A DNA stretch of 64,000 nt, from assembly GCA_023415335.1 (NCBI GenBank), contig JAEZLD010000048.1:1-64000 (forward strand), read 5' to 3'. This document shows positions 17,013 through 34,833 of the stretch, one piece after another. A model generated the notes under the pieces. That model was not told the origin of the DNA. It saw only the letters and a list, made by a program, of their open reading frames with translations, and searched no databases. A program made the position numbers and the translations under genes. This DNA is from Bacillota bacterium. GTDB taxonomy: Bacteria; Bacillota; Clostridia; Clostridiales; Caloramatoraceae. How positions within the stretch are numbered: the first letter of the stretch is position 1; each line of letters begins with the position of its first letter.

Positions 17013-17120
17013 TGTGCGCCTCCTACTAATTCTAAAATAGAAAGGTAAAAAAAGACCATCTGTACATCAACTAATCAACTGCTCAATTAATATATTGATG
17101 GACAGATGGCCTTTAATTAA

Positions 17121-18188
17121 TTAATCCATAGAAGATTCCATATGCTTAGTATATAGATCAGTAATTGCCGTCTTGTTATCAGAAACCCATCCTTCATCAT
17201 AGTTATCGAATAACTTTATCTCGCTCTGAGGAGTCATATAATCTGCCAGCTTTACGCCTGCACGAAGTGGACGTACAGTCAGATTTGACCCAACGGCACT
17301 CTGAATCTTCTCAGACAGCATATAGTCAACAAATTTCTTTGCATTTTCGGGGTGCTTGCAGCCAGCTAATATCTGAACAGACTCTCCAGGGAAAATTGCT
17401 CCTTCTTTAGGGAATACTACCTTTACATGGGCGCCTTGCTTAACATAGTTAGCTGCTGGATCTTCCCAAGTAAGCCCTACAGCATACTCTCCTTCTGCAA
17501 CGCCTTTATAAACCTGGCTTGAACTGTTGCACATTTTACCATCAAGGTTCTTTATAAATTTATCAACAAAGCTCCATGCCTCATCAGATAGAGGATCATT
17601 TCCAGTTCCCATTCCATAAAGCATAGCTATCAGAGACTGAAAAGCAGAGCTAGAGTTTACAGGATCGCCAAATGCTATTTTACCTTTTAATTCAGGATTG
17701 AGAAGATCTTCAAATCCTTCAAGCTTTATATCACCAATCAAATCTGTATTTACAATCAAAACAGTTGGGTCAGCAAATGCAGGAGTAAAATATCCAGTAG
17801 TATTACGGAAAGCTTCCATCATGTTTGTATCTTCCTTAGATACATACTGGGCAAAAAGGTCTTTTGATGACTCCAGCATAGTACGGTCAGCAACCCAGAA
17901 GATATCACCTAATGGATTTGCCTTCTCGGATTCTGCTCTTTTTAGCAGTTCTCCAGTACCAGCAGTAACAACTTCCACCTTAATTCCAGTATCCTTCTCA
18001 AACTCTGGAATAACTGCATTGTTTAACGATTCGCTACGAGAGGTGTAAACAACAAGAACTTGCTCTTCTTTTGAATCGGCTTTGTCATTTGTAGTAGTTT
18101 TCTTACTTCCACAAGCGGCCATACTTATTACCATAGCTACAGCTAGTGATGCTGCGATTAATTTTTTCAATCCTTTCACTTTACCCAT
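17121..18188 (-). CDS. ABC transporter substrate-binding lipoprotein (family-1 SBP, iron(III)/polyamine/thiamine type)
   Basis: It has a lipobox 'MAACGS' and is SBP_bac_1-like. Confidence 0.8.
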   Translation of the reverse strand: MGKVKGLKKLIAASLAVAMVISMAACGSKKTTTNDKADSKEEQVLVVYTSRSESLNNAVIPEFEKDTGIKVEVVTAGTGELLKRAESEKANPLGDIFWVADRTMLESSKDLFAQYVSKEDTNMMEAFRNTTGYFTPAFADPTVLIVNTDLIGDIKLEGFEDLLNPELKGKIAFGDPVNSSSAFQSLIAMLYGMGTGNDPLSDEAWSFVDKFIKNLDGKMCNSSSQVYKGVAEGEYAVGLTWEDPAANYVKQGAHVKVVFPKEGAIFPGESVQILAGCKHPENAKKFVDYMLSEKIQSAVGSNLTVRPLRAGVKLADYMTPQSEIKLFDNYDEGWVSDNKTAITDLYTKHMESSMD

Positions 18189-18404
18189 CCTCCGAAATCA
18201 TTTTAGATAAATTGTTGCAACCATTATCTTTGAGAAAATTCTAACATTTATTTTTTTTTATGTATATCCGAAAAAAAATAAAAAAGGTGGAAAATACAAA
18301 AATTTTGTCTTTTTCTGTTGTATCTGTTCACTAGCGTGTAGTATCTTCTCATTATAGATGCAGGCAGGGTTATCATGGATGTGTCCGGAGGCGAGAAATG
18401 CTAA

Positions 18405-18434
18405 CAGCCTTCTATGAAAAAACATAGAAGGCTG
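18405..18434. terminator. Hairpin terminator, copy 2 of the duplicated 35-nt element
   Basis: It carries the same cagccttctatgaaaaaacatagaaggctg + TTTTAT as the copy at 9656-9686 (35/36 nt identical). Confidence 0.55.
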
Positions 18435-18580
18435 TTTTATAATTATTAAAGGTTCACCTAATCAGTATATTAAATTTGCCTACTAAATCAGAAGCCTCCG
18501 CTGATGCTCCTTCAAAAGACATCAGGTCAAGCTACTTGTTAATGAGTCAGGAGAAACATTACAGTAAAGAACAGGTCACC

Positions 18581-19608
18581 TTATTCCAAGCTGCAAACCG
18601 CTTCCCGAAGCATTCCCGCATATTCCGCCTTCACATGCTGGGGACCTTTAATCTTTACCTTTCCACCAAAACCAAACACCCAACTATAAAAGATGTGACT
18701 TACTGCAATATCTACAACGGCTCTAAATGAGTTCATGTCGTTTGCGTATGTAGTAACATCCTCGCCAAGCCGGTCAATAATGGAATCCATAACACTGTTG
18801 TCGCATATCAATTCAACTTCTTCATGCTCGCTGTTAAACATTAGGAATGTTATATAATGTATTCCTCAATATCAAATCCCTCTGGGGCAGGAGTTCCGTC
18901 TTCTTTCAAGATAACCGGACACTTAGCAATTAGGTCTACTCTAAAGCACCCAAGACGCTGTTTATTTTCGTAAACACCAATCATATAATAACAAGCACCA
19001 TTCCACACAAGATGAAGGGGCGTAATTGTGTACGGCTCACCATTGTGTTTCAATTTTTTCTCTTTTCATACATTGTATTGAAAATACTGTAAGGAGATTT
19101 TCTTGTTCGCGTTGATTGCATCGTTAATGGCATCAACAATAATGTAGATTCTTTCATTTCCAACCTTAATGCGGCCTTCACAGCTTACATTCCTTTTAAG
19201 ACTAGCAGCAGCATAAGATCCAGCCATAGAACTAAGTTTCTCAGCCAGTTCTTTGCTTTTGCTTGAATTTATGAATTTTGACGATTCAACAGCGTCAATC
19301 AATAATTTTAACTCTGGAATATCAAATTTTCGTCCAAATAGATTGTATCTATTCTGCGTAGATTTAACCTCTTCGATTTCAAACCCCAACTGCCTGAGCA
19401 GTTCAATCTCAGCTTTGATTGTTTGACGATGTGATCTGATTCCATATTTCTCCCCTAAAATTCGAATCAGCTGAGCAGTTGTAAGAAAATGCTCTTCGTC
19501 TATTTGCTCACATAAAATTTTTGCCAAGTACAACGGCCTTAATTTTGCGTTGTTATCCATTTGCCCACCTTCAATACAGATAAACATTTTACAGGTTGTA
19601 TCTGACAC
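18581..19608 (-). pseudogene. HTH-WYL-WCX transcriptional regulator (BrxR/CapW/PafBC-like), disrupted by an in-frame TGA and a frameshift
   Basis: It is split into three ORFs. The first is the HTH part 19608-19066. The second is the WYL part 19053-18850, with 'ITPLHLVWNGACYYMIGVYENKQRLGCFRVDLI'. The third is the WCX-like C-terminus 18841-18581, with 'FGFGGKVKIKGPQHVKAEY'. ORF1 and ORF2 are in the same frame across a TGA. ORF2 and ORF3 are in different frames. Confidence 0.65.
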
Positions 19609-19828
19609 ACGGGGAGTATCTTATGTTTGTAAAACCAGCGGCTTCAAACTCTCAAACTATATCTAAATAGTTTTCTCCAGTAAGTCCCCAAGAGGATGCT
19701 GGAATTTAAGCCTCTCCAGTATGATTGTTCGTGTTTCCGCAGCCAACTAAAGAAAATAGCAAAGCCAATGCCAAACACAAAGATATAACCCTTCTCACTT
19801 TGCCCACCTCATAGAATCAACGCAGATA

Positions 19829-20890
19829 TTATGCGTTGATTAATTCAGAGAAATCTCTGCAATTTTGAACATTTGAGACCTGAATTTCCACATTCAATCC
19901 CCCAGAGGATCGCAAAAACACCTGCCCATATAAGCATATTGGAAGCTGTCTGTTGTTGCTGTAACGGCGATCTGGCGTTCCGTTCTTATTAACAAACTGC
20001 CATGTATGTCCTACAACTTGAGCATCCTTCGGAACTCCTTCACTTTCAACAAATCTAACTTCAGAAGTTTGGACTCTAAAATCACTATAATCAATCATTC
20101 CCACTTTGCTTCCGCGTACAATGAAGACTTTATCAGGAAGAATAATCAACATTTCCTTCTTCAGTTTGATCTGTACAGTATCAATATTTGTATTGATGTA
20201 GAAGGGACGCCCTTTTTCGATTTGGCAAGGAATACGATTTAGGCTTCTCCCTGCACCAGCATGTAATTTCGTGTTCGAATTAAACTGCTCAGAAGTAATC
20301 TGCCACTCTTTTTTTCCTTCAGCCAGTAATTGCCATGCGCCAATTCTTCTGTCATGCTCATCTTTTGCTTCTGCATCAAAGGAATATTCCAATTCAACAC
20401 GGCCCGACTTGTGAGCCATGACCTTTAGAACAATACCAAGAACCAAAAGCAAGAAAAACACCGGCTGCGCAAATCCTAATAGAGAAAGCCAGATCAGCGC
20501 CGTACTCCATTTATTGAGTTTAATTGTTTTTTCTATAGTTTGAGAAATATTACCAGTCTCTGCAGCCTTAAATTGCTCAATACTTGCGCTTTCGATCGGA
20601 ATTTCTGCCTCATAATTGCTTGAAGGGTTGTAGTTTCCGGGATTGTAATTATTTCCTGAAGAGTTACCGTATCCTTGTGATCCGCCTCTTCTCCTTGAAT
20701 TTCGCTTTCCGGATTCATCAACATAAGATATTCCTGTTCCCGGAATAGAATATGTTCTTCTTGTTTTTCCGCTTGCTGTTTTTGTAATACGGTATCCTTT
20801 GGTACCCCAACTATATCCAATACCTGATTTGCTGAGATTGATCCTAAATCCCCCTCCAAGATTTATACTTTTTCTATATCTAAAGCCCAT
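19829..20890 (-). CDS. DUF4236-type N-terminal domain + single TM + C-terminal domain of unknown function
   Basis: The N-terminus 'MGFRYRKSINLGGGFRINLSKSGIGYSWGTKGYRI' matches the DUF4236 pattern. It is followed by a Gly/Asn/Tyr-rich linker and a hydrophobic helix 'LIWLSLLGFAQPVFFLLLVLGIVL'. Confidence 0.6.
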   Translation of the reverse strand: MGFRYRKSINLGGGFRINLSKSGIGYSWGTKGYRITKTASGKTRRTYSIPGTGISYVDESGKRNSRRRGGSQGYGNSSGNNYNPGNYNPSSNYEAEIPIESASIEQFKAAETGNISQTIEKTIKLNKWSTALIWLSLLGFAQPVFFLLLVLGIVLKVMAHKSGRVELEYSFDAEAKDEHDRRIGAWQLLAEGKKEWQITSEQFNSNTKLHAGAGRSLNRIPCQIEKGRPFYINTNIDTVQIKLKKEMLIILPDKVFIVRGSKVGMIDYSDFRVQTSEVRFVESEGVPKDAQVVGHTWQFVNKNGTPDRRYSNNRQLPICLYGQVFLRSSGGLNVEIQVSNVQNCRDFSELINA

Positions 20891-21625
20891 TCAAATAACC
20901 TCCTCAACTTCAATAAACACTACGCTAAGATCATCGTTTGAACCGTTTTTTAGGGCTTCTTCTATTATCTTATTGCACTTTTCTGTTGCTGCCATGTTTT
21001 GGATTAATGTGGCTTCCAGAAAATCAAGAGAAACATACTCATGAACACCATCTGAGGTGAGCAGATATTTTTTCCCTTTTGTAATAGATGAAACAGAGAT
21101 CTTTGCGGCGTAGTTTTCATTACCTCCACCTAAGCAACTAGTAATCTCATTCTTGTTACATAGTTCAGCTTCCTCATATCGTTGCATGCTACAAAGGTAG
21201 TTATAAACCGTATGATCCGATGTCAGCTGTTTTAAGTAATCGCCTTGCAACACATAAGCCCTGGTATTTCCCACATGAATAAGTTGATATTTCGTTTTGA
21301 AAAACAGGATCCCTGTTAGCGTCGTAGCCATATCCGAAAACTTGGGCTCCTGCTTTGCCTTTTCTAAAAGTGCAGTATTAATATCTAGGATCTCCGAACG
21401 AATATCAATACTCATGTCTATTGCAAGATCCCTTAAGGCATTTACAACAAAGTTTGATGCAACGGCACCACCGGCATTACCCCCAACACCGTCTGCAACA
21501 CAAACGATTCCACTTTGAACAGTGTCCAAAACCTGGCAACTATCCACAACAACATCTTTCCCAACAAGAACCGCGTCTTCGCTGGCTAATTTGTTTTTCC
21601 CAGCCTTTGTAACTACGCAGATCAT
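20891..21625 (-). CDS. PP2C-family Ser/Thr protein phosphatase
   Basis: It has the motifs 'VADGVGGNAGG', 'TSDGV' and 'NGSNDDLSVV'. Confidence 0.85.
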   Translation of the reverse strand: MICVVTKAGKNKLASEDAVLVGKDVVVDSCQVLDTVQSGIVCVADGVGGNAGGAVASNFVVNALRDLAIDMSIDIRSEILDINTALLEKAKQEPKFSDMATTLTGILFFKTKYQLIHVGNTRAYVLQGDYLKQLTSDHTVYNYLCSMQRYEEAELCNKNEITSCLGGGNENYAAKISVSSITKGKKYLLTSDGVHEYVSLDFLEATLIQNMAATEKCNKIIEEALKNGSNDDLSVVFIEVEEVI

Positions 21626-23517
21626 TAAATCGCCTCTTTAGTGCAGGTTAAAGCATACGGCATATTTTCAGCATCTATATCTTCAATCCTGATTCTGGCA
21701 TCGCCTTTCACGCCATGGTCAAACATATATCTTGCCAAAGGATTGATGAGTAAGCTTTCAACAAAGTTTCCGATTCCTCGACCACCGTTTGCAAGATTGC
21801 CCAACGCCTTTTCTTCCAAAATCTTCATAGCCTTTTCCGACAAAGTCAGCTCAATGTGTTTCTCTGTAACCAGGTTCCTAATAAGCTTATTAACCTGTGC
21901 CTCAAGGATAATCTTTGCTACAGGAGGACGAATGAAGTCAAAGACCACAATGTTTTCACCAATTCTATTCAGAATCTCAGGGCGTCCCAGCTCAAGTTTG
22001 AAATAATCCTCAATAGCCTGTCTTACGCGAGTTTGGACTTCTGAATATTCCATCTCCGCTGTAACATTGGGTTCTCTTACGCCAAGATTATTTCTTGTGT
22101 AAATTCCAAGGTTGCTAGTGAAGATTATGATACATTCAGAAAAATAAACCGTATTACCCTGGCCGTCCGTCATTCTACCATCTTCCAAGATTTGCAGGAA
22201 TTTATCGAAGATAGACGGATGTGCCTTCTCAATTTCATCAAACAGGAGGATAGAGAAAGGATTTTCCTTAACTGCGTTTGTTAGCTGGCCTCCTGCTTCA
22301 TATCCAACATATCCTGGAGGCGCTCCCAGCAATTTTTGGTCGCTGTGACTCTGGCTGTATTCACTCATATCAAATCGAATACAGCAGCTCTCGTCTCCAA
22401 ACAGTTTCTCGGCCAGCGTCTTTGCGGTTTCCGTTTTACCAGTACCAGTCGGTCCTGCAAAGAAAAGAATTCCCTTGGGCTTGGCGTGGGAAGAGCTCTG
22501 TAATCCAGCCATGCCGGTAACAGCTCGTTTTACAACATCCAGTGTTTTTATGATAGCAAAATCCTGACCTTTTACGCGCTTTTGGAAATCTGCGTGAGCT
22601 GTCTTTAATTCATTCTCATCAAGGGCATCCCAAGGATTCTCTTTAATTCCATAACGGTATAAATCAATTACCGATGCCATCTGTCTAATTCTGGTCTTTT
22701 CATTTTTACAAAGTCTTCTTAGCCCATTGATCTCAGTAAAGCTAAACCCTTCAGTAAGGCCTACAAATTTATCTTGAATCTTATCAAGTTCTTCCGGATG
22801 TTCTTGATAATAAGGAAAATCTTCATCATATACATCTGCAGCGAAAAAGCTCATGAAATTTTCTCCTTTAATGAGCCGTTCGCGTTCTTCTTTGGAAGGG
22901 GTTCCAAGGCTTATGGTCTTCACATTGGGATTATCCAAATAGAACCAAGCAGGAATATCGTTGACCTTATTAACGATCATTACAACAATATTTTTTAATG
23001 TCCCGTTTTCTGTACGGACATCCTTTCCTTCCATAGAAGATAGGATTAAGTTTGTGAAACTATCTACTTCAGATTGTTCTATTCCATCGGGAGTCGTAAT
23101 GTATCTTGAAGCAAGATTCATAACAATTGCAGTAGACTGTTTATTTTGATTTACAGCAGTTCTAATTATAGAAGTTGCTGAATTACTCTTTCCCTTAAAA
23201 TCACATCTTATGTATTTACCTTCAAGTTTTGCGTTTGCAATCTCAGCAAAAGACTCAACATGACCTTCCTCACAAGAATTATAAAATCCCTGCATGCTGT
23301 CAAAAAAGACAATCGATTGATATCCAAGGTCCTTAAAATAATAGTGCAGGTACTCAGGCAAGCGCAAAATGCTGCCTTTAGAAATGCTTCCCTCTGTAGG
23401 GTATTGATACACATCGAGAACATTGCCTTCGAGAATAATCAAGGGTTTGATTCTGCTAAAAATACCCAGTTCTCTGTGCCATTTTGGAATATATTCTTCC
23501 ATTTTCCTGCCTCCCAC
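21625..23517 (-). CDS. AAA+ ATPase with a ClpA/ClpB D2-like C-terminal module and a divergent ~330-aa N-terminal region
   Basis: It has Walker A 'GPTGTGKTETAKTLA', 'LLFDEIEKAH' and the sensor region 'IIIFTSNLG'. The N-terminal half is unrecognised. Confidence 0.8.
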   Translation of the reverse strand: MGGRKMEEYIPKWHRELGIFSRIKPLIILEGNVLDVYQYPTEGSISKGSILRLPEYLHYYFKDLGYQSIVFFDSMQGFYNSCEEGHVESFAEIANAKLEGKYIRCDFKGKSNSATSIIRTAVNQNKQSTAIVMNLASRYITTPDGIEQSEVDSFTNLILSSMEGKDVRTENGTLKNIVVMIVNKVNDIPAWFYLDNPNVKTISLGTPSKEERERLIKGENFMSFFAADVYDEDFPYYQEHPEELDKIQDKFVGLTEGFSFTEINGLRRLCKNEKTRIRQMASVIDLYRYGIKENPWDALDENELKTAHADFQKRVKGQDFAIIKTLDVVKRAVTGMAGLQSSSHAKPKGILFFAGPTGTGKTETAKTLAEKLFGDESCCIRFDMSEYSQSHSDQKLLGAPPGYVGYEAGGQLTNAVKENPFSILLFDEIEKAHPSIFDKFLQILEDGRMTDGQGNTVYFSECIIIFTSNLGIYTRNNLGVREPNVTAEMEYSEVQTRVRQAIEDYFKLELGRPEILNRIGENIVVFDFIRPPVAKIILEAQVNKLIRNLVTEKHIELTLSEKAMKILEEKALGNLANGGRGIGNFVESLLINPLARYMFDHGVKGDARIRIEDIDAENMPYALTCTKEAI

Positions 23518-23593
23518 TCTTTGTTCTACACGCTATTGATTACTGTTGATTTTTTCTTGAAATATAGTATAACCTTAATCTGGGCAATTCATT

Positions 23594-24175
23594 TTACCCA
23601 CGATATGGGGTAAAGCCTGGCTTATGTATCCCCACAGAAACAATACCGTCTGTCGTCGTAAAATTTTGAATTCTGTTCCCATTTTCCCGTAAATACCAAT
23701 CATACAATCCGCGGTATTTCTCTTTTAAGATGTGAATCCTTTGATTGGTAGATCCACGCAAAACCAGACCAGCATTCTTTTCTTCAATATATGGTCCATC
23801 AACAAGAACTGCAATATAAGGCAGAATATCATTTGCTAGTGAGTTTGTTGCTGTGAATTCCTCGCGGGTATATCCAGTATAGACTAAAATGTCCTCAGAA
23901 ATATCATGAAGTTTCTTTAATAAATCAAGCAATTCTGATGCTTGATCCAGTGGTTCACCGCCAGAAATAGTAAATCCATCAATTGTATGGTCTGTAGCGA
24001 GTCTCTTAATCAGTTCTAAAAGCCTATCAACTGATATCTCATATTCTTCTTTCTGATTCCACAACTCCGGATTACTACAACCTTTGCAGGCGCGTTTACA
24101 ACCACAGAGCCATATACCAACTCTATTACCAGGACCCAAAACTTTTACGGGATACAATATTCTTGCTACATTCAT
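23594..24175 (-). CDS. Anaerobic ribonucleotide reductase-activating protein (NrdG)-like radical-SAM activase, orphan
   Basis: The match to NrdG runs along its whole length: 'KVLGPGNRVGIWLCGCKRACKGCSNPELW' (CxxxCxxC), 'ISGGEPL', 'VYTGYT', 'VLVDGPYIEEKNAGLVLRGSTNQRI'. No glycyl-radical enzyme is nearby. Confidence 0.85.
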   Translation of the reverse strand: MNVARILYPVKVLGPGNRVGIWLCGCKRACKGCSNPELWNQKEEYEISVDRLLELIKRLATDHTIDGFTISGGEPLDQASELLDLLKKLHDISEDILVYTGYTREEFTATNSLANDILPYIAVLVDGPYIEEKNAGLVLRGSTNQRIHILKEKYRGLYDWYLRENGNRIQNFTTTDGIVSVGIHKPGFTPYRG

Positions 24176-24783
24176 CTGTCCACCTTGAAAGTCAAATAAG
24201 CAGCAAGTTCTTGTCTCTCGCCATTAATCACTTTGCCACCAAGGCCAATCTCATCGCCTTCTTGCAATGCGGTCGGTACATCATTGTCAATGGGCTTATC
24301 GTTTACAAATGTTCTGTTTGTGGCACTCAGGTTTTCAATAAAAACCTTTCCAGCAACTATCGTCAATTTTGCGTGCTGACGACTAACATATGAACGCTGT
24401 TTCAAATAGTCCTTCAATTCGGCTTCCCGGCCTATAATCACAACTGGCGTATCAAAAGATTGAGAAAAATCACCACTAATTGAATCTAAAGAATATGAAA
24501 ACTTCTTCTCTTCATGTTTCGTAGGCCGAATATCTGAAATATCCTCTCCACATGTTTTACATTTTCGAGCTTGTGGAGGATTAATCGCACCACATTCACA
24601 AACTCTCGCCAAAGTTCCTTGCGATGCTGGTGGTTCTGTGGGAAGTTCCTTTTGAGCCTCTTCAAGAGCAGCATCCACAATACGAACTCCTGTTAGATCA
24701 CATTCACACTTTCGACACTCTAGCAAAACAGGCAGGTTGTTCTCACCACAGGAAGGGCAAACTTTATATTTCTCCAAAGCCAT
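24172..24783 (-). CDS. Double zinc-ribbon + FHA domain protein
   Basis: It has CPSCG...CRKCEC and CECG...CKTC ribbons. The C-terminal FHA region shows 'VIIGREAE...SRQHAKLTIVAGKVFIENLSATNRTFVND'. Confidence 0.8.
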   Translation of the reverse strand: MALEKYKVCPSCGENNLPVLLECRKCECDLTGVRIVDAALEEAQKELPTEPPASQGTLARVCECGAINPPQARKCKTCGEDISDIRPTKHEEKKFSYSLDSISGDFSQSFDTPVVIIGREAELKDYLKQRSYVSRQHAKLTIVAGKVFIENLSATNRTFVNDKPIDNDVPTALQEGDEIGLGGKVINGERQELAAYLTFKVDR

Positions 24784-26150
24784 TACTCATTCTCCCTTCG
24801 CATTGTTTTTGTGGCAGAACGCTTTTTCCTTCTTCTCGTTGCCATTTCAGTAATTTGTTTACTACTGTGAATTTGATAATCGTTTACATTAATGATTGCT
24901 GCATATTCTGCAGCAGGAGGCGACATTTCAATACGCGTTCCCACAATGACGCCCTTTTCCTTTAGTCTTCTTTCAATCTCTGCAAACTCACCGCAAAAGG
25001 TTTCCATATCTTCCGTTAATTCTCCCACCTCTTCTTCATTGGGGAGCCGGTCTTCATGAGCTATGCCACCAAGTTCCATTGCTATTTGACCATCCGAAGA
25101 AAAGGTGACATTGACGGCAGTACCTTCATCAAAAGAATACAATTCATTTCTAAATTTCTTTCCGCTTTTCTTCTTTACTTCGCGGGAACCCAACAGTTCA
25201 TATCCCATTTCGGAAAGAACCTCTTCCACACAATCACTGATATATTCCTGTTCGCGCTGTTTGACCGCTAACAACTCTATCCTTTCAACTTCTTTTTCTA
25301 TTGTTTCAATCTCTGCAGATCTAAACAAATCAACATTGGACTGGACTCCGGTCAATTGACAAAGCACCTCATATCTATCAAGGAGATCTTTACGCAACTT
25401 TTCTTCTTCTTTTTTCTGCTCCTTGATAAGAGAACTTTTCGCTTCGAGAGCTCTAATAGTTAAACTAGAGAAGGTATGTAGATAATCTATGGACACAATA
25501 CGCCCAAGCGAATTCATTGCCTCCCCAATCTCTTCTTTCAAAGAATTAGGACATTCTTTATCAAGAAACATTGCCTTCAACTTTGCTTCCAGCTCAGTTC
25601 GCTCCGTCTCCAAAGCATCCACTTCAACTGGAGCGCTGAAGTCCAAATAAACATATGCTGCAAGGTCCTCCGCTATACTATCTTGTGCCGTATTTTCAAG
25701 TTTTTCCACAACAACAGTAGCTTGCTGGATTGGTTTCTCTATCTCTTTTTGTAGAGCTTCAACATTCTGCTTAATCTTCCTGATCGCAGCAAGCTGTTGT
25801 TTTTTCTCAGCAAGAGCTTCCTCGCTAATTTGATATTTTTCACTCAAATGAGGTCGATGAGATTGAAGATCCATAAGCAATTCGGTTGACTCCTTCTCTA
25901 TGACACCCAGCATTTCTTGCAAGGACGCCACACAGTTACCATCAACCTCACAGCGCTCATTCAAAAGTTTTAGCCGTGTGAGCAACTCCTCGATAGTTCC
26001 TCTACATCCTAATATGTATGAAACACCTAACTCAATTTGATTAGCACACGATATGCTTTGCTGTTCACAGCGCATTTGTCCGTTGACATTAGCCCGTGCC
26101 CAGCCAGATAATTCATAAACAGATATTTTAGGACCACTCATCCAAATCAC
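24783..26150 (-). CDS. Coiled-coil protein of unknown function
   Basis: It has long heptad-rich E/K/L segments and is translationally coupled on both sides. Confidence 0.55.
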   Translation of the reverse strand: MIWMSGPKISVYELSGWARANVNGQMRCEQQSISCANQIELGVSYILGCRGTIEELLTRLKLLNERCEVDGNCVASLQEMLGVIEKESTELLMDLQSHRPHLSEKYQISEEALAEKKQQLAAIRKIKQNVEALQKEIEKPIQQATVVVEKLENTAQDSIAEDLAAYVYLDFSAPVEVDALETERTELEAKLKAMFLDKECPNSLKEEIGEAMNSLGRIVSIDYLHTFSSLTIRALEAKSSLIKEQKKEEEKLRKDLLDRYEVLCQLTGVQSNVDLFRSAEIETIEKEVERIELLAVKQREQEYISDCVEEVLSEMGYELLGSREVKKKSGKKFRNELYSFDEGTAVNVTFSSDGQIAMELGGIAHEDRLPNEEEVGELTEDMETFCGEFAEIERRLKEKGVIVGTRIEMSPPAAEYAAIINVNDYQIHSSKQITEMATRRRKKRSATKTMRRENE

Positions 26151-26160
26151 CTCAACTCAA

Positions 26161-27852
26161 CTATTCATTCATCAACATTCGCCACTTATCAATTTCTTTC
26201 TTCTTGCCAATCGCAATTAGCCATGTCTCAAGCTGCACATCTAAATTGCCATCATAATCAACAAGTCTATGACATAAGGTCTCAAATTTATCGAAAGACA
26301 AATCCAAACACTCTCTCATGTATCCTGCCAGTTCGCCAACTGTACGGAACTGCTGGTTATCCAGCAGCAATAATTTTTGTCCTGACAAGGTATATGCCAT
26401 ATAATAATAGGTGCGAAGCAAATCCGAATGTTTGCCTTTCTCTAATACATAAGAATCTTCAATGGCTGCCGTAGCCTTTTTAAGAGCTTCATTCTTTGGA
26501 GACACCTGCATTACATACTGAGTTAAAAGTTTTTCATTCAAAACGCTTTCATAATACTTGTACTGAGATTTATCGTGTTTCCAAAGCTTTTCGAGAACAT
26601 CTCGGCCAAATGCGGGAAGACTTTCATACACTTCACCCTTCCAATAGAAGCCCTTCAATTTCGGGTTCAAGCGATACAGCAGTTTCCAAAAAATAATATC
26701 ATCTTTTCCATTAGAGCGGCTGGCTTCCTCTTCAGCTTCCATGCATTTTTTCGCTGCCTCTTGATCAAAAACTCGAAAATGTGCTGATAAAAGGCCTCGG
26801 AAAAGATGTTTCTTTCCTTCGTTCCAGTTCTTTGCCAGAGACGCAGCAAGCCCTTCTATGCTGGTTATTTCTTCGTTTAGGAAATGGTAAATAGGCATAT
26901 TTCCTTTGCCTACATTTCCAATTCCTTCACCAGGGATGATAAGGCTTTCACCGTTGATCCACTTTACAACCTCTTCGTATGTCCAGCGGCGATTTGGATT
27001 GTTTTTGTTTTTGCGATAACTGATATCATAATATGTCAATGCAGAAATAAAATCTTGCAAAAGCACGGGCATGCTTTCCGGAAACGGTATTCTTTGAACG
27101 GATACATATTGTTCAATCTCTTCCGGTTGCATATTTGCATATGGAGTATATCCACAAAAAAGCTCAAACAGCGTTATGCCAAAAGAGTAATAGTCAGATC
27201 CCTCATAAAAAATATTCTTAAAAGTCTCTGGTGCTGAATACTCAGGTGTCATGCCTGTTTTCGTCACAAGAAGAGTATGTTTATCATCAACAGCGGAACT
27301 GATTCCAAAATCGATAATGGACACAGTTTTACCATCATCATTTAACATAATATTAGATGGTTTAAGATCTTTGTGAATAATTCCTGCCTGATGGATCGCA
27401 TGTAGCCCCTCATTAATGTTGGGAATAATACTTTCAACCAATTCCTCATAGTTAAATGTTTTTCCTTGCAAACTTCCATTTTTGTAGTAAGGAATAATTT
27501 CTACAGGAAAACCATTATGTTTTGCTGTTTCATGAAGCTTTGCAACATAAGGTGAATTGATGCTCAGTAACGCCTTAATCACATCTTCCTTGATTGCGAA
27601 TTTCCTCTTGTAAATCTTCGCAATATACTTTTTCCCATCATTCGAGCAAATATACAAATCAGCTTCTCCAGAGGCAACCTCCAATCGTTCTTCAATTGTA
27701 TACTTGTCGCAAATTATTGTTCCGCGATCAATCAAATCCTCTTGTCTACTGATAGAGTCGATTTGATTGCCATACTGCTGGACGAGCTCTGAATTAATCG
27801 CAGTCGGTGCTGATTCTATGATATTAGGATTAATTACTGTACGATTATCCAC
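26161..27852 (-). CDS. Hanks-type Ser/Thr protein kinase with a ~270-aa C-terminal domain of unknown function
   Basis: It has 'YIAKIYK' (beta3 Lys), 'HKDLKPSNIML', 'DFGIS' and 'TPEYSAPE'. Confidence 0.85.
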   Translation of the reverse strand: MDNRTVINPNIIESAPTAINSELVQQYGNQIDSISRQEDLIDRGTIICDKYTIEERLEVASGEADLYICSNDGKKYIAKIYKRKFAIKEDVIKALLSINSPYVAKLHETAKHNGFPVEIIPYYKNGSLQGKTFNYEELVESIIPNINEGLHAIHQAGIIHKDLKPSNIMLNDDGKTVSIIDFGISSAVDDKHTLLVTKTGMTPEYSAPETFKNIFYEGSDYYSFGITLFELFCGYTPYANMQPEEIEQYVSVQRIPFPESMPVLLQDFISALTYYDISYRKNKNNPNRRWTYEEVVKWINGESLIIPGEGIGNVGKGNMPIYHFLNEEITSIEGLAASLAKNWNEGKKHLFRGLLSAHFRVFDQEAAKKCMEAEEEASRSNGKDDIIFWKLLYRLNPKLKGFYWKGEVYESLPAFGRDVLEKLWKHDKSQYKYYESVLNEKLLTQYVMQVSPKNEALKKATAAIEDSYVLEKGKHSDLLRTYYYMAYTLSGQKLLLLDNQQFRTVGELAGYMRECLDLSFDKFETLCHRLVDYDGNLDVQLETWLIAIGKKKEIDKWRMLMNE

Positions 27853-27854
27853 CT

Positions 27855-30800
27855 TTAAACACCTCCAACCACAGTAACCTTATCGTCGATTACATTAATT
27901 TTCTCATTTGCAATCAGTTTTTCAAGAGCTCTTGCCATTGCTACATTGATTTTCTCACCGCGTCTTGAATATCCAATTGCCCTTGTTGTTTCTTCAATGA
28001 GTGCTTTTGTGCTAAGTCCAAATGTGTTAGAAGCAACAGCTATCATAGCAAGCCCCAATTCATCTGTAGAAATAAGGTTAATCGCTCTTTGATTGTATCC
28101 ATCCTCAGGAATACGCACTTTGAGATTATCAAAACCTTTAAGGGTGACAAAATCATCTTTAATCTCCAGCCGTTGTCTGCCCGCTGTGGTATTCATTGCC
28201 ATATCAACCATGCGACGCACCAGACTCGTTACCTTTTGATTACCAAAAGCACCCGCCATTCTCTGGTACAACAAATCCTTATGTATCGGCTGCTCAATAC
28301 CGACAATATAAACTATCCTTGTTAATACTTCGGTCATATTGTCGTATGTGTTTGGCATTGGTGCATCCCACCAATTGGCCTCCACATAGCGTTCAAATCC
28401 ATACGGATTATCCTCGTCGCAATTAATGCCACCACGGTTTTGTGTACCTTTATAAGATTCCTCCGTAACTTCTTCAACCATACTAGACAAATCTTCTTGC
28501 AATAATTTCTTCTGCTCAGGTTCTTCAATTTTAACAGCAGTATGTTCGGATGCATCCTGTATAAACGAGAGGAGTTTAGCTCCTTCCACCTCGGGATTAA
28601 TATACCACTCTGCAGACCATACTCTGTACATATTCCAACCCATGGAATTCAGCACAGATCTTCTCAGATGATCTCTATCTCGTGCTGTATGAGCAGAAAC
28701 ATAAGAGTAACCATCACACTCAATACCTGCAATATATTTGTCTTCATCGTTACGATCCACAACGGCAATATCAATACGATAACCAGAACAACCAACATAC
28801 TTTTTGATAGTATATCCATTCTTTTCTACAAATTCCCCAACCATATCGACAAAGCGATCCTGCCCTTGTACATTTCTAGACGAGGCTAACGCAACTGCGC
28901 CATTCATAGCAAACTCAATGTACGAGCGTAACATTCTGATGCCTTCTGATTCTGTTCTGGAAAGATCAATATCGGAAGGAAGAATAGAACTAATAAGCTT
29001 TATGTTTCGCTTTGCTCTAGTAATCGCAACATTTAGTCTTCGCTCACCGCCTTGGTGTCCAAGAGGGCCAAATCGCATGTGCATCGGGCGCCCAGATTCC
29101 TTTTGATCCTTTGTTTGCGCATAACAAATACTAAAGAAAATCGTGTCGCGTTCATCGCCCTGAACATTTTCCAGATTCTTTACAAAGAACTCTTCTTCAT
29201 TACCTTCCTTGAAGAAGAATTCATATTCCGGATTTTGCTCTCTAAACCGCTGCACTTCCAAAGAAATCTGTTGCTGTTGCTTTTCGCTGAAGGCAATGAT
29301 TCCCAGGGATCTGTCCGGATGCTTATCAATATGCTTCTTGATTAATTCAACACACCGCTTAGCCTCTGCAACATTACAGTTTCTACCGCCGCCTTCATAA
29401 TATCCATCTTCAACATATTCGAACTCAACACCACAATCCTCTTCGTGTTCCACGCTACTTGGGAAAGTGACCAATTCATTCTTGTATATCTCTTGATTAG
29501 AAAAGGCAATGAGATGCTCGTGCTTGCTTCTATAATGCCAAAGCAATGTACGATTTGGCAGCACACTTGCGGTTTCTTCCAGAATAGAATCGTAAACAAT
29601 ATCTTCGTATTCATCATCAGAATCAAAAGCGTCGGAATCATTGCTTGTACTCGTAGCAAAGAAATTTGTAGGAGGCAACTGTTTTGTATCACCAGCAATG
29701 ATAACCTGCTTTCCTCTGAAAATAGCACCAATTGCATCTTGTGGGAATATCTGTGAAGCCTCATCAAAAATAACCATATCAAATTGGTAGGAGTCTGCTT
29801 CAAGGAAATAAGCCACAGACAAAGGGGACATCATCAAACATGGTTTTAATGTCAGCAACAAATTGGGAATTGATCTAAAGAGCATTCTCAAAGGCATAAT
29901 GCGACGCTTTTTTCCCATTTCTCTTTGAAGCACCTGCAACTCATCTTTTGCTGTTGTGACTCTGTTGGTATCAGGAAATCTGCTAATTATTTTCTCGCGG
30001 ATTCTCATCTGTGCAACAGATAGCTGCTTAGTATCCAATTCCACAAAGCGTTCCAGCTTCGCCTCTTGAGTTCTTCTACGGAAACTTTGGACAGCCGGAG
30101 ATTTATCCATTGCCATAGTAATCCAGAGTTTATAAAACTGTTTTTCAAAACAAGCCTTAATTTCACTTGCCGGAACTACACCTTCGGAAATCAAATCAAC
30201 ATATTTCTTTAGTCCTGCATTAACACACTCAGCAGTTGTTTCTCGATAATCAATCCACTGGTCCAAAGAATTGACATTGCTTCGGCAAGCAGAAACTTTC
30301 TCATTGATTCTTGCAATTTCACTTTGTTGCAAGGAAGCTCCATATTCAAACAACGAAGCAAAGTAGCTAATAGGCTCTTCTACTGGAGCAAGAAGAAGTC
30401 TTATATCTGTAGTTGCAGCTTCCAGATTGTTTCTTTCCGCTTCACTATTACAGTATGTACGGATAAATCCGGGCGCAGCAATGCTGAAGCTGTTGTTTTC
30501 AAACAAAGAATTCACAGCTTCAATATCATCAATTAGTTCTGCCCACTTAGTGTCAATTCCAGCATAGCGCTCTCCAAACAAAAACACTAAGCTGTCTTCA
30601 TTTTGTGCCAGTGACAGTCTATAGTTTCTTGCACTATTAGCCGTATTAATGTTTTCAACAAGCTCTGCCATTGCATCTTCGCAGGTGGCAAATCTCCGTA
30701 TATATTCAACGGAAGAATTCAGTCCATTAGTATGCTTGCTCAAGAACAGAATCCTCTGTAGTATTTCGTCATTCGTAGTTGCAAAAACAGGATCCTTAAA

Positions 30801-33800
30801 GTCTGAGGAAATATTATTGAGTTTAACAGAAAGTGAATCTAGCCTTTCCTCTAAAAGTACACTTACAGCAGATGCAATCTGTTCTAATTGGTCAGAATGA
30901 ACATCCTTATTGCTTAAGATATTAATAAGAACTTCGGGCACTCCAGTTTCTCCAAAGCAATTCTTCAACTTTCGGACCATATCAAAGGCATCTAACAAGC
31001 TTTGCCACGGGGTATCCACATCATCATAACGTGAACCCAAAACCACATCAAAACGATGCTTATTTTCTTCAAACCATAGCTGTTCTGCTTTGAATGCCTT
31101 GATTTGCTGTAGCAGGGAAATAATCATTGCATCATTGATTTTTCCACCGATTGTTCTGCAAACAGCTCGAATAGTTTTAATGTCCTCTTTGTATGCTGCT
31201 TTGAATATCTTAAAGAAATTCACATACTCTGTTTTGAAACGCAACAGCATTCCGTCAACATCGATTTTGAAGACATCTTCTTCCCATTGATCCAAAATAG
31301 CTTTTTTGATACCCAGGTATGTTTGTGCATGGGACTGTCCTTGGGTAATCAATTTTTTAGCCTCGGCTGCTATCTCGTCATTAAACCATTCACGCTTAAC
31401 GGTATTTGTGTTAAGCACAGCCCTGGCAACAGCTCCTGTCTCTTTGATTGCATTGAAGTTTTCACCAAAATTGATACCTAACATAGATTTTATACATACA
31501 TAAGCGTTATACACTTCATTCCATTCTTGTTCAAGTGAATTTGCGTATACTTTAAGCTGGCTAATGCCTCCAATAATGTCTGCTTCGGAAGACTTTTTAT
31601 AGTTACCGCACTTTCTGATGTTGTCTAGTGATTCTCGGACAGAATCTATCCAAGCCTGTAAATCTTCATCCAAAATACTCTCCACAAACAAAGCTTTCAC
31701 TTTGTCAAGGCATGCCAAATACTGCTGCTGTTTTTCTTTTTCTTCTACAGCAACAGTGCGAAGTTTATGACGCCGCTGGACCTGTGCCCATTCCTCAGGG
31801 AACAACGGAGCGACAACAAACATTTCCAAAAACTCCGCCATCTTTTTGGCCCCACTAAGGGTACGTTCTCCAGACAGGCCGAGACGGGCATGAATTTCAT
31901 GTAGAGTGTCATTAAGCTTTGCAAGCTGGTCTTCGAGCAAGTGGGTTTTTTGTATAAAACTGTTTTTTAAGCTTTGACTTGCTTGGGTAATTGTTGTTCC
32001 GTTCCACGGATGTTCTTCTAGCTTCATTCCCAGCGCTAAAAGAGCTTTTTCCATATTTGCAACACAATACATCATGGCATTATATTGGGAAGAAGTCACA
32101 GAATGAATATCGTCAATTTCAAACTGGATTTCCGGAACAGAATCCAAAATAGAATATTTACCAAAGGCGGTATATAAGCTTTCTCCCAATGGTTCAATTT
32201 CACTGTGGAGCTCTTCTGCATATGCATTAAGATGTTTGCGATCATGGAAAAGTTCATCCAGCTCTATAACAACAGAATCCTTAACTCTCTGGTGCGGAAG
32301 TTTTAGGTTGGCTCCAATGTTTTCCAGAATATCTTTTTTGTTTGCTTTGTGGCTATGGAGAGCTAAGCAGAAATCCTCCAGTTGCACTTCAGTTAATCTC
32401 TTCAAAACAACTTGAAGGGCGGCGGCCTTTTCAGAAACAAACAAGATTTTCTTTCCATCAGCCAATCCTTCGGCAATAATATTAGTAATTGTCTGACTCT
32501 TGCCTGTACCAGGAGGGCCTTGCATAACGAAGCTAACCCCCATCTTAGATAGTAAAATTGCTTCTTGCTGACTTGAGTCTGCGTTAACCACTTGATACCA
32601 ATCGCGGGGTGAAACATCATCAAAGGCAAAATTCTGATATGATGCAGGAATTTGATTTGCTGAAGATACATCTCCCGCGATAGCCCTCAAAGTAGGACTA
32701 CTCATCATTCGGGCACGGTGATTGTTGAGATCATGGTACATGCTGATCTTCAAAAAGGACAACAAACCCATGCTCACTTCACGGATAATTTTCCATCCTC
32801 GCTTGTCAACAATCTCTTCAATCTGCTGCAAATATTGCTGGATTGATGACTCATCCTTCAACTCAAATGTAGGCAAATCTAAACCATACTGCTCGTTGAA
32901 CAAATAGTCCAGCGTAGGATTTACCTCAATTTCGTCATCATACCGACTCAGTGTGTACGGAGAGTGTATGGATTCTAATCCAAGTGTTACCGGCATCATC
33001 AGTAATGGAGATTTGAGCCATGGAGAAGAATCCTTGCTATTTTCTTTCCACTCGACAAAACCAAATGATATGTACAAAATGTTTGTACCTTGTTCATCCT
33101 TGGCTAACTTAGCTTTATTTCTTATATTGCGTAGTGTTCTTTGCCTTTCGACAATAGAGCCTTCCGTTTTAATGTCTCCAACATGAACAGGGAGAGGATA
33201 AGACAATGTTTCCAGCAACGAAAGAACAGAAAATGTTCTTAAATCCGAATCCTTATCAATCGGTCTTTGGAATGTAAGTTCCTCTTCACCAATAGCCAAT
33301 CTGTTAAACAGTTCAGAAAAACCCGGTTCAATAATCCGCAAAGTGGAAAGTTTTGTCTCTCGATAATTAATCATTCGATTGCGCTTACCAAGATCCAATA
33401 GCTGATGCTTCCAAAAATCAATTCGTTTATCTAATGTTTCCAGATCATCTGCTCTAACATGGATACCATCCATTGCATCAGGAAGTTTTTTTCCATCAAA
33501 AGCATTTTCAACATGCTCAACACTTGCTTCTCCCCTCTGAGTTGACTCCACCGTTGACGTTATTGTTTCAACTGGAGAATCATTTCTTACCACTCGTCCC
33601 TCTGGAGCAAAGTTTTCTGTTTTGCCTGCTTCGACAGCAGCCTGCTGCGTCTGAGTAGTAGACGCAGGAACTGGAGTAGATTCAACAGCTCGAACCGGAA
33701 CCTGGTTTTGTTGTGCTCTCACTTCGTTTATCCTCTTTGCACTCAAATAATTCTCTTTGGCAGCATCGTTGTAAGATGCTGGGTTGGATGAATACCGGCT

Positions 33801-34013
33801 GAACGCTGATACCCATTGTGTATTCCCCAAAGTAGAGCAACGCGTAAAAGCGTTGTTGCAAACAGGACAAGTATGAGGTTTTGCCAAATTTATATAACTG
33901 TTATTAGAAAATCCATTAGCAATAATTTGTCTACTTATTCTTGCACAAATAGGGCAAATGACCGTAGGAACTCTTGAACCGTTTGAACAATTTAAGATGA
34001 TTAAATCCACCAT
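27855..34013 (-). CDS. Giant (2052 aa) zinc-ribbon + DUF4011 + SF1 (Upf1/DNA2-like) helicase + DUF3320 + DUF559/Vsr-like PD-(D/E)xK nuclease protein (Hhe-like)
   Basis: It has Walker A 'VMQGPPGTGKSQTITNII' and motif II 'VIFDEASQ...GDTKQLPP'. The C-terminal nuclease region shows 'YRIDIAVVDRNDEDKYIAGIECDGYSYVSAHTARDRDH'. The N-terminus carries CPIC...CPVC ribbons. Confidence 0.85.
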   Translation of the reverse strand: MVDLIILNCSNGSRVPTVICPICARISRQIIANGFSNNSYINLAKPHTCPVCNNAFTRCSTLGNTQWVSAFSRYSSNPASYNDAAKENYLSAKRINEVRAQQNQVPVRAVESTPVPASTTQTQQAAVEAGKTENFAPEGRVVRNDSPVETITSTVESTQRGEASVEHVENAFDGKKLPDAMDGIHVRADDLETLDKRIDFWKHQLLDLGKRNRMINYRETKLSTLRIIEPGFSELFNRLAIGEEELTFQRPIDKDSDLRTFSVLSLLETLSYPLPVHVGDIKTEGSIVERQRTLRNIRNKAKLAKDEQGTNILYISFGFVEWKENSKDSSPWLKSPLLMMPVTLGLESIHSPYTLSRYDDEIEVNPTLDYLFNEQYGLDLPTFELKDESSIQQYLQQIEEIVDKRGWKIIREVSMGLLSFLKISMYHDLNNHRARMMSSPTLRAIAGDVSSANQIPASYQNFAFDDVSPRDWYQVVNADSSQQEAILLSKMGVSFVMQGPPGTGKSQTITNIIAEGLADGKKILFVSEKAAALQVVLKRLTEVQLEDFCLALHSHKANKKDILENIGANLKLPHQRVKDSVVIELDELFHDRKHLNAYAEELHSEIEPLGESLYTAFGKYSILDSVPEIQFEIDDIHSVTSSQYNAMMYCVANMEKALLALGMKLEEHPWNGTTITQASQSLKNSFIQKTHLLEDQLAKLNDTLHEIHARLGLSGERTLSGAKKMAEFLEMFVVAPLFPEEWAQVQRRHKLRTVAVEEKEKQQQYLACLDKVKALFVESILDEDLQAWIDSVRESLDNIRKCGNYKKSSEADIIGGISQLKVYANSLEQEWNEVYNAYVCIKSMLGINFGENFNAIKETGAVARAVLNTNTVKREWFNDEIAAEAKKLITQGQSHAQTYLGIKKAILDQWEEDVFKIDVDGMLLRFKTEYVNFFKIFKAAYKEDIKTIRAVCRTIGGKINDAMIISLLQQIKAFKAEQLWFEENKHRFDVVLGSRYDDVDTPWQSLLDAFDMVRKLKNCFGETGVPEVLINILSNKDVHSDQLEQIASAVSVLLEERLDSLSVKLNNISSDFKDPVFATTNDEILQRILFLSKHTNGLNSSVEYIRRFATCEDAMAELVENINTANSARNYRLSLAQNEDSLVFLFGERYAGIDTKWAELIDDIEAVNSLFENNSFSIAAPGFIRTYCNSEAERNNLEAATTDIRLLLAPVEEPISYFASLFEYGASLQQSEIARINEKVSACRSNVNSLDQWIDYRETTAECVNAGLKKYVDLISEGVVPASEIKACFEKQFYKLWITMAMDKSPAVQSFRRRTQEAKLERFVELDTKQLSVAQMRIREKIISRFPDTNRVTTAKDELQVLQREMGKKRRIMPLRMLFRSIPNLLLTLKPCLMMSPLSVAYFLEADSYQFDMVIFDEASQIFPQDAIGAIFRGKQVIIAGDTKQLPPTNFFATSTSNDSDAFDSDDEYEDIVYDSILEETASVLPNRTLLWHYRSKHEHLIAFSNQEIYKNELVTFPSSVEHEEDCGVEFEYVEDGYYEGGGRNCNVAEAKRCVELIKKHIDKHPDRSLGIIAFSEKQQQQISLEVQRFREQNPEYEFFFKEGNEEEFFVKNLENVQGDERDTIFFSICYAQTKDQKESGRPMHMRFGPLGHQGGERRLNVAITRAKRNIKLISSILPSDIDLSRTESEGIRMLRSYIEFAMNGAVALASSRNVQGQDRFVDMVGEFVEKNGYTIKKYVGCSGYRIDIAVVDRNDEDKYIAGIECDGYSYVSAHTARDRDHLRRSVLNSMGWNMYRVWSAEWYINPEVEGAKLLSFIQDASEHTAVKIEEPEQKKLLQEDLSSMVEEVTEESYKGTQNRGGINCDEDNPYGFERYVEANWWDAPMPNTYDNMTEVLTRIVYIVGIEQPIHKDLLYQRMAGAFGNQKVTSLVRRMVDMAMNTTAGRQRLEIKDDFVTLKGFDNLKVRIPEDGYNQRAINLISTDELGLAMIAVASNTFGLSTKALIEETTRAIGYSRRGEKINVAMARALEKLIANEKINVIDDKVTVVGGV

Positions 34014-34070
34014 ATTAATACCTCATCACCTCTAAAAAAATGGTTCTTATTGTTGTAATCAATCAGAAAA

Positions 34071-34277
34071 CTAATCGTTCTCTATGACTTCCATCAAGTC
34101 TCCTAGGTCACAATGAAAAATCTTACAAAGGCGAAGCATGACTTCCATTGAAACGACGCGGTCTTGATTAAGTTTTGTCATAGTATATTGCGAAAGTTCA
34201 GCCGCCTTCGCAAGTTCACTTTTTTTCATTTTGTTAGTTATCATAATAGTCCACAGTTTATCATATCTAACTATCAT
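34071..34277 (-). CDS. XRE-family HTH transcriptional regulator (68 aa; internal Met start preferred)
   Basis: 'MITNKMKKSELAKAAELSQYTMTKLNQDRVVSMEVMLRLCKIF' is a Cro/CI-type HTH. An AGGAGG lies upstream of the ATG at 34277. Confidence 0.7.
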   Translation of the reverse strand: MIVRYDKLWTIMITNKMKKSELAKAAELSQYTMTKLNQDRVVSMEVMLRLCKIFHCDLGDLMEVIEND

Positions 34278-34332: not shown

Positions 34333-34347
34333 TGATATAGTATATCA
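34333..34347. promoter_or_regulatory. Perfect palindrome TGATATA-G-TATATCA in the XRE promoter region (candidate operator)
   Basis: It is a 7-bp inverted repeat ~55 nt upstream of the XRE start. Confidence 0.35.
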
Positions 34348-34623
34348 CAGTTCTCGTAAAGCTTCAATGTATTTTATCGAACTAACAAGAATTACACTAG
34401 AATGTGTCGATTTAAATCATCACCTAAAGTGAAAACATCCCACACCAGGCCGCGAAAACCCAGTGCGGGGTGCAAGGTCTTAATATGCCGGGATACCGTA
34501 TCCCAGGATCTCATAATGTCCGACCCCATAGCTGCGCTGTGCACAGGAATCGCCGGAGTCGCCCTCAGCGGTGTAAACTCAACAGTTATCGATAGTTTTA
34601 GCTTCAGTACAAAATAAAAATAG

Positions 34624-34662
34624 GCAAAAAAATAGAACCCCATGAGTTCTCGACTCATAGGG
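34624..34662 (-). terminator. Rho-independent terminator downstream of lysS
   Basis: The minus strand reads CCCTATGAGT-cgaga-ACTCATGGGG followed by TTCTATTTTTTT. Confidence 0.5.
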
Positions 34663-34833
34663 CTCTCACTGCATTTAGTTTTCATTTAGTGCAAGCGATT
34701 GCGATTTGCATGTTTTTGTCGTGAATACCGGCGACAAAATGGAGAGGTTTGGAGAAAAAATTGGATAGTCACCACACCATATCGCAAAATCAATCGCAAT
34801 AAACCGTTATAAGGGGACCTGCAGGGACTTAAT

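Follow-up and report, generated by a model that had tools for sequence, protein, structure and literature searches.

Positions 19560 to 18581 on the minus strand carry the broken gene of a winged HTH (wHTH)-WYL-WCX transcription factor. With a probability that we put at about 90%, this locus is a true, fixed pseudogene, produced by ordinary gene decay in a mobile, probably anti-phage island whose distal half is decaying. The island lies in the 64,000-nucleotide stretch of DNA analysed as a whole (the window). The first inactivating event was a nonsense mutation that turned Arg165 into TGA, parting the DNA-binding half of the protein from its ligand-sensing WYL domain, and neutral drift of the whole gene followed. 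In the window's sub-lineage, one A was then lost from codon 236 and conserved residues changed, and a sister strain acquired a second stop (E175*) instead. Two stops and a deletion of 1.3 kb ruined the upstream gene for an MBL-fold lipoprotein, and the genes found behind WYL in intact islands are absent, the nine proximal genes being intact. No functional product would be left in the window lineage, and the island would be losing its distal half together with the regulator.

When repaired, the gene has 326 codons, which are now divided among three pieces on the minus strand. Fragment 1 (19066..19560, codons 1-164) encodes the N-terminal winged HTH and a linker. In six-frame translation it runs from the ATG at 19560, the start supported by homologues, to a premature TGA at 19068..19066, which alignment with homologues places at Arg165 and which is common to all the strains represented by contigs L021-L028. 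Fragment 2 (18850..19065, codons 166-235) encodes the WYL core and continues in the frame of fragment 1 for 71 codons, ending at a TAA (18852..18850) that is created by the frameshift. The frameshift itself is a 1-nt deletion between 18856 and 18855, where DNA alignment with six intact relatives shows that an A of AAT (Asn236) has been lost. Fragment 3 (18581..18855, codons 236-326) encodes the WCX part in the -1 frame; its mechanically called ORF spans 18841..18581 and has 86 aa. No single uninterrupted frame covers the three domains, given the TGA at codon 165 and the deletion at codon 236. At the position of the TGA, the closest relatives have AGA in the DNA alignment, other relatives CGG and L018 AAG; in the protein alignment the residue is Arg in most homologues and Lys or Leu in the few remaining. 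The frame changes at an asparagine that is invariant in homologues, where the window is without one A of ATT-AAT, at a site away from any long homopolymer. Each lesion is a simple point event, and the gene is otherwise collinear with its relatives. The original prediction had put the first two ORFs in one frame across a TGA, and the second and third one base of frame apart; six-frame translation agrees with the former, and the missing A in the Asn236 codon, a -1 shift, accounts for the latter. Its other dimensions need correcting: it had taken the gene to be continuous over about 340 aa when repaired, but intact homologues are mostly exactly 326 aa long, and its start at 19608 is an upstream, non-homologous GTG, the homologue-supported ATG being at 19560.

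Two of the three domains are recognized by profile searches. The Pfam WYL model (PF13280, cut-off 21.8 bits) scores 22.1 bits on ORF2 alone and 28.7 bits on the repaired protein, and the WCX model (PF25583, cut-off 23.9 bits) scores 33.8 bits on ORF3 and 29.7 bits on the repaired protein. The HTH at the N-terminus of ORF1 is weak by sequence, with an HTH_11 match under the cut-off (E=0.026). That HTH, WYL and WCX segments are spread over three ORFs, as had been proposed, is thus upheld by Pfam for WYL in ORF2 and WCX in ORF3, the HTH giving just this sub-threshold match. An AlphaFold (AF2) model of an 86%-identical homologue (P0001) has a helix-helix-helix-strand-strand, winged-helix arrangement at residues ~10-75 with pLDDT 70-86, in a model that is poor as a whole (mean 45.8, shallow alignment). 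The domain matches indicate that the gene is a member of the wHTH-WYL-WCX architecture class, whose members are regulators of a known kind. No named NCBIfam family covers the repaired protein, and the PADLOC profile that fits it best is a CRISPR-associated WYL protein (“WYL, CAS associated_signaling,” PDLC01652, 2e-21). When a family profile built from 14 members was run against 177,635 PDB sequences, it matched only four WYL chains, at ~20 bits and E 0.002-0.01 (7u02, 7tzv, 9cu3, 9pfq), which we take to be DriD entries; none of the matched chains is labeled BrxR or CapW.

Intact relatives are abundant. A search of 5.8 billion proteins returned 2874 homologues at E<=1e-10, and the best 120 of these are uninterrupted, mostly exactly 326 aa long and 75-86% identical to the repaired protein. 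This supplies the comparison with intact WYL orthologues that had been called for, and it places the TGA at Arg165 and the frameshift at Asn236. No homologue above 86% identity occurs among the matches listed (the best 120 of 2874), and therefore an intact allele of the window lineage is not on record. A contig search added ten relatives in unrelated Clostridia at 54-83% identity, and homologues 75-83% identical are found in Merdimmobilis, a Peptostreptococcaceae isolate, Anaerostipes, Lachnospiraceae and Faecalimonas.

The lesions are reproducible. An exact-sequence look-up finds the same 164-, 67- and 86-aa pieces in at least six independent metagenome assemblies of the same species, with the exact 164-aa product on four other contigs and the exact 86-aa product on five. 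Contigs L021-L028 represent at least six different samples and two styles of assembler. Their nucleotide identity to the window is 98.2-99.9%, and they have the three-ORF structure between an upstream DUF4236 gene and a downstream ABC-transporter binding protein gene, as in the window. One of them, L024, has the TGA at codon 165 and retains the A of codon 236, with an extra stop of its own (E175*) and changes at the invariant N187 and the conserved C190; it also keeps the ancestral D198, Y199, R210 and F265, all lost in the window. Since L024 has the TGA without the deletion, the TGA arose first and is fixed in all the members of the lineage that were sampled, and the part of the gene behind it has since suffered independent damage in different strains. 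The changes in L024 cluster in the 3' half, and from their distribution they could be a recombined tract instead of in-situ decay. Single-base indels and substitutions are typical assembly errors, and the idea that the true gene is continuous and the lesions artefactual was one of the alternatives first raised. This can be set aside almost entirely: the same lesions recur in at least six assemblies from different samples and both assembler styles, strains 1-2% divergent in the flanking DNA are among those carrying them, the deletion is outside any long homopolymer, conserved sites have an excess of substitutions, and L024 combines the TGA with different secondary damage. The proposed inactivation by an in-frame TGA and a one-base frameshift is borne out by the same assemblies.

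Recoding has as little to recommend it. The three pieces are collinear and jointly exactly 326 aa long, as would be expected if TGA read-through or reassignment followed by a -1 ribosomal frameshift gave a full-length regulator. However, the residue opposite the TGA in homologues is Arg instead of Trp, Gly or Cys/Sec, and homologues are interrupted at neither site. The shift site ATTATATAAC lacks an X XXY YYZ slippery heptamer, and an Rfam scan of 17900-20100 found no element. L024, with no frameshift and a further stop, is incompatible with a conserved signal. TGA is a normal stop in the window, ending 8 of its 41 long ORFs, including the PP2C and FHA genes of the island. Programmed recoding would call for a stop or shift site conserved in homologues together with a slippery sequence or signal, and neither was found. 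Read-through, which had also been offered as an alternative, is therefore hardly credible here, and selenocysteine or TGA reassignment is ruled out by the Arg in homologues and the ordinary use of TGA as a window stop.

The coding sequence also bears the marks of relaxed constraint. At columns with 95% conservation or more, the repaired protein has 12 deviations, where the 120 homologues average 1.6 and reach 10 at most; at otherwise invariant columns it has five (homologue mean 0.22). Changes at otherwise invariant residues include T20I, Y199N, R210L and F265L, and F58L alters a residue conserved in at least 98% of the 120 homologues. Within the species (window versus L025 and L028), the pseudogene has five non-synonymous and no synonymous codon differences, and the neighboring genes (DUF4236, binding protein and ABC ATPase jointly) have 12 non-synonymous and 33 synonymous; Fisher's exact test gives p=0.003 for this contrast, which is a small sample with only five changes in the pseudogene. 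In all five changes, it is the window allele that departs from the family consensus. Synonymous sites are saturated in every window comparison, and dN/dS against relatives is thus unusable; by dN branch lengths only, the window branch is 1.3-2 times as long as that of the closest relative. Second lesions acquired independently in sister strains point the same way. The gene therefore combines relaxed selective constraint with reproducible disruptions relative to intact homologues, as expected of a pseudogene.

The same data bear on whether the 164-aa N-terminal fragment might still work, either as a ligand-blind DNA-binding repressor or as a dominant-negative partner of another WYL protein. Fragment 1 keeps its ATG, an AGGTGG ribosome-binding site and the whole winged-HTH region, and the same 164-aa product occurs in several strains. 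It nevertheless holds three of the five within-species changes (D4N, T20I and F58L in the window allele). All three of these between-strain differences are non-synonymous, T20 is otherwise invariant, and all depart from consensus, which argues that the HTH fragment is not maintained either. It also lacks the WYL and WCX parts on which dimerization relies in the solved BrxR and CapW structures (PMC9122589, PMC9122601). The short intergenic context suggests that the fragment's own regulated target is gone. A working fragment is accordingly very improbable.

The decay extends beyond the regulator. Directly upstream lies a second, unannotated pseudogene, the stump of an MBL-fold lipoprotein gene (19619..19807, minus strand), of which the first 63 codons, the signal-peptide end, remain. 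It has in-frame stops at 19708..19706 (TAA) and 19654..19652 (TGA), and about 1.3 kb is deleted after 19619, the full-length protein having 478-487 aa in relatives. The stump is common to all strains examined. In relatives, the lipoprotein has a weak Pfam match to the anti-Pycsar Apyc1-like model. Further upstream, the island is intact. A nine-gene array on the minus strand (19829-34277) is headed by a gene for a small XRE-type (HTH_26) regulator (34071..34277), identified by Pfam and by its context in relatives. Behind it, in 19829..34013, are genes for a 2052-aa helicase-nuclease (DUF4011/AAA_11/AAA_12/MTES_1575), a Ser/Thr kinase, a 455-aa protein, an FHA protein, a small radical-SAM protein (Fer4_12), a ClpB-like AAA ATPase, a PP2C and a DUF4236 protein. 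The helicase scores 1303 bits with the NCBIfam “anti-phage ProA” model, under its cut-off of 1500, and also matches Hhe and PADLOC PDC-S37; a literature search on the “ProA” helicase family returned nothing useful. Judged by its domains and its recurrence in three diverged relatives, the array looks like a multi-gene defense system built on phospho-signaling.

The window is collinear from 34517 to 19621 with the arrays of relatives, at ~73-77% DNA identity and 66-95% protein identity. In L011, L012 and L013 the proximal genes are those for the kinase, a 451-aa protein, FHA, radical-SAM, (LRR), ClpB-like AAA, PP2C and DUF4236, and they are followed by a 487-aa MBL-fold lipoprotein, WYL, (RNase T/BRCT, 198 aa, 282 aa), a 437-aa protein and a 613-aa Castor/RCK-like protein. 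In L029/L032 the order is XRE (HTH_26, 68 aa), a 2038-aa helicase, kinase, 452 aa, FHA, rSAM, 107 aa, AAA, PP2C and DUF4236, and then MBL (478 aa), 235 aa, WYL (328 aa), 435 aa and 613 aa. Gene order is the same in all five relatives and gene lengths are nearly equal, which, together with the protein identities, is why the nine proximal genes are considered intact. The slot between the radical-SAM and AAA genes is occupied by a 303-aa LRR_5 gene in L011, by a gene for a 107-aa protein in L029 and by ~100 bp in the window (23497-23603), and thus appears to be a variable slot in the array. In intact relatives the WYL gene lies far within a single long run of co-directional genes, separated by 20-45 bp from the gene before it and with more island genes behind it. 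This revises the earlier picture of a WYL gene lying beside the island, and of a BrxR-like gene flanking it upstream. No remnant of the distal genes (435 aa, 613 aa) was detected in 18150-18620 or in the whole window, nor any window counterpart of the downstream genes of L011. From three relatives, each only ~75% identical in DNA, we infer that the ancestor of the window island had the 435- and 613-aa genes. Given the destroyed MBL gene and the missing distal partners, the regulator is one of several casualties at the distal end, and passive decay is favored. A terminator-like hairpin with a perfect 14-bp stem (18403..18436), between the pseudogene and the ABC-transporter genes, lies where the island-derived sequence ends.

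Outside this type of island, the WYL family is carried by varied mobile DNA. In all contexts seen, its genes are co-directional with their neighbors and 20-45 bp behind the preceding gene, and the surrounding defense-type cargo varies (examples are type I R-M with HNH, Metallophos with SMC, Macro, HATPase_c_3). Genes for relaxases, LexA-like S24 repressors, translesion polymerases and Tn916-type Xis/Int are found on these elements. Plasmids and putative phage contigs also bear some of the homologues, with “WYL domain-containing protein” as the sole annotation. DNA homology between contexts ends ~10 nt or less from the coding sequence, and so no operator moves with the WYL gene.

The characterized wHTH-WYL-WCX proteins BrxR and CapW are repressors of defense operons (PMC9122601, PMC11662680, PMC9122589), with BrxR acting on a defense island (PMC9122601, PMC9122589) and CapW releasing its operator when its WYL domain binds ssDNA (PMC11662680). 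BrxR of Acinetobacter and of Escherichia fergusonii pEFER resembles the window family in its winged HTH-WYL-WCX architecture and in its location in defense-type islands on mobile DNA (PMC9122589, PMC9122601). Beyond the domain level, however, the window family has no detectable sequence relationship to BrxR, and its gene is an internal or late member of a co-directional array, not the first, with no upstream inverted repeats. BrxR is also proteobacterial, whereas the window family is ICE/IME cargo of Firmicutes, with a dead copy in the window. CapW, which belongs to CBASS, shares the domain architecture, and its mode of action is the one presumed for the intact relatives (PMC11662680), but it serves a different system and the window copy is a pseudogene with no divergent-promoter arrangement. 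Strict membership of the BrxR/CapW group is thus not borne out: the PDB profile search found no sequence homology to its characterized members, and in no context seen does the WYL gene head an operon, or diverge from one, with inverted-repeat operators. DriD/PafBC, the WYL activators of DNA-damage regulons, provide the sole solved structures that match the WYL-WCX part, very weakly (~20 bits), and relatives of the window gene lie near LexA-like and translesion-polymerase genes in ICEs; unlike the window family, which is element-borne cargo, they are chromosomal global regulators. As for the CRISPR-associated WYL proteins, to which the best PADLOC match points, no CRISPR-Cas locus is present near the window gene or at the related loci examined. 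By analogy with these systems, the intact protein would be an operator-bound dimer, released or switched at its WYL domain by a damage or infection cue such as ssDNA.

The best candidate control point of the island, as far as motifs can indicate, is 34339..34425, upstream of the XRE gene. It combines a conserved promoter-like site, TTGAAG-17-TGnTATACT (34367..34339, minus strand), with a 24-nt palindrome-like element, AGGTG-N14-CACCT (34425..34402, minus strand), which has one mismatch in the window (CACAT). Related mobile elements have the same type of palindrome ~120 nt before their genes for LexA-like S24 repressors, and it occurs at L003 8754, L008 9583, L009 9593, L032 95, L011 19825, L013 9558 and L018 14777, against a chance expectation of ~0.16 matches per 64 kb. 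It was seen only upstream of XRE or LexA-like genes, and none of the WYL contexts seen has a conserved palindrome upstream of WYL. With no WYL input left, the proximal operon would now be driven by the conserved promoter before XRE.

This arrangement frames the question of whether the loss was adaptive. If WYL repressed the island promoter, its inactivation could have been selected for constitutive expression of the helicase, kinase and AAA genes. BrxR and CapW do repress defense operons (PMC9122601, PMC11662680, PMC9122589), XRE comes directly before WYL in L008 and L009 so that both may share the conserved promoter, and the broken allele has gone to fixation among the strains sampled. The island is also less diverse between strains than the chromosomal flank, which is compatible with recent spread. 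By analogy with these repressors, it is possible that WYL loss de-represses the remaining operon. Selection for that outcome is nevertheless unlikely: with the MBL gene before WYL destroyed and the partners behind it missing, the picture is one of general distal decay instead of targeted loss; WYL is not the operon head and no operator travels with it; and in Acinetobacter BREX, a premature stop in brxR has little effect on restriction (PMC9122589). A more specific proposal starts from the spacing of the two regulators, with XRE directly before WYL in L008 and L009, 0.9 kb before it in L003 and ~14.5-17 kb from it around the window-type island. Across integrative elements of gut and anaerobe Firmicutes, WYL and the small XRE might make up a conserved pair of regulators, with variable defense cargo between and around them. 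On this view WYL loss here, instead of being passive decay, might have been selected as a switch that left the helicase-kinase-FHA-rSAM-AAA-PP2C genes under constitutive control by XRE only. We regard this as distinctly unlikely. Ordinary decay remains the preferred reading.

For annotation, the three small ORFs should be replaced by one pseudogene, with the unannotated MBL stump alongside. By itself, the locus is of little weight, being a well-documented example of a regulator pseudogene. It is also a natural experiment, in which several strains have kept a nine-gene candidate defense operon whole while lacking the WYL regulator found in every intact relative, and this suggests that the operon tolerates loss of the regulator. 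Matched broken and intact islands are thus available for asking what the Firmicute WYL family controls.

Within the species, the island genes for AAA, PP2C and DUF4236 differ from those of L025 at four codons in ~670, and the adjoining ABC-transporter genes differ at 41 in ~720 (comparison region 15581-21841). The low diversity of the island relative to its flank suggests that the island, with its broken WYL gene, has recently spread or swept within the species. No direct repeats or att-like sites bracket it, there are no tRNA genes near it, and comparison with the sister lineage gave no empty site, other genes being present there after lysS. The adjoining LysS is 83-86% identical to that of Caloramator species, and synteny upstream of lysS agrees with the sister lineage, which makes the host an uncultured, Caloramator-like member of the Clostridia. 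Downstream of lysS the genes are wholly different between the two lineages, which marks the region as variable. LysS itself (34834-36360, minus strand) has 508 aa in the window and is 95% identical in the sister lineage, where it carries an additional 148-aa C-terminal tRNA-binding domain (PF01588) that has left no remnant in the window (34368-34833). In the Peptostreptococcaceae isolate (L003 8903-16837), an XRE-WYL pair also lies downstream of greA-lysS and encloses an ADP-ribosylglycohydrolase gene; two more WYL/WCX proteins, RtcB and a DUF2828/DUF7788 protein are encoded after it, and this array may be a WYL-controlled RNA-repair module.
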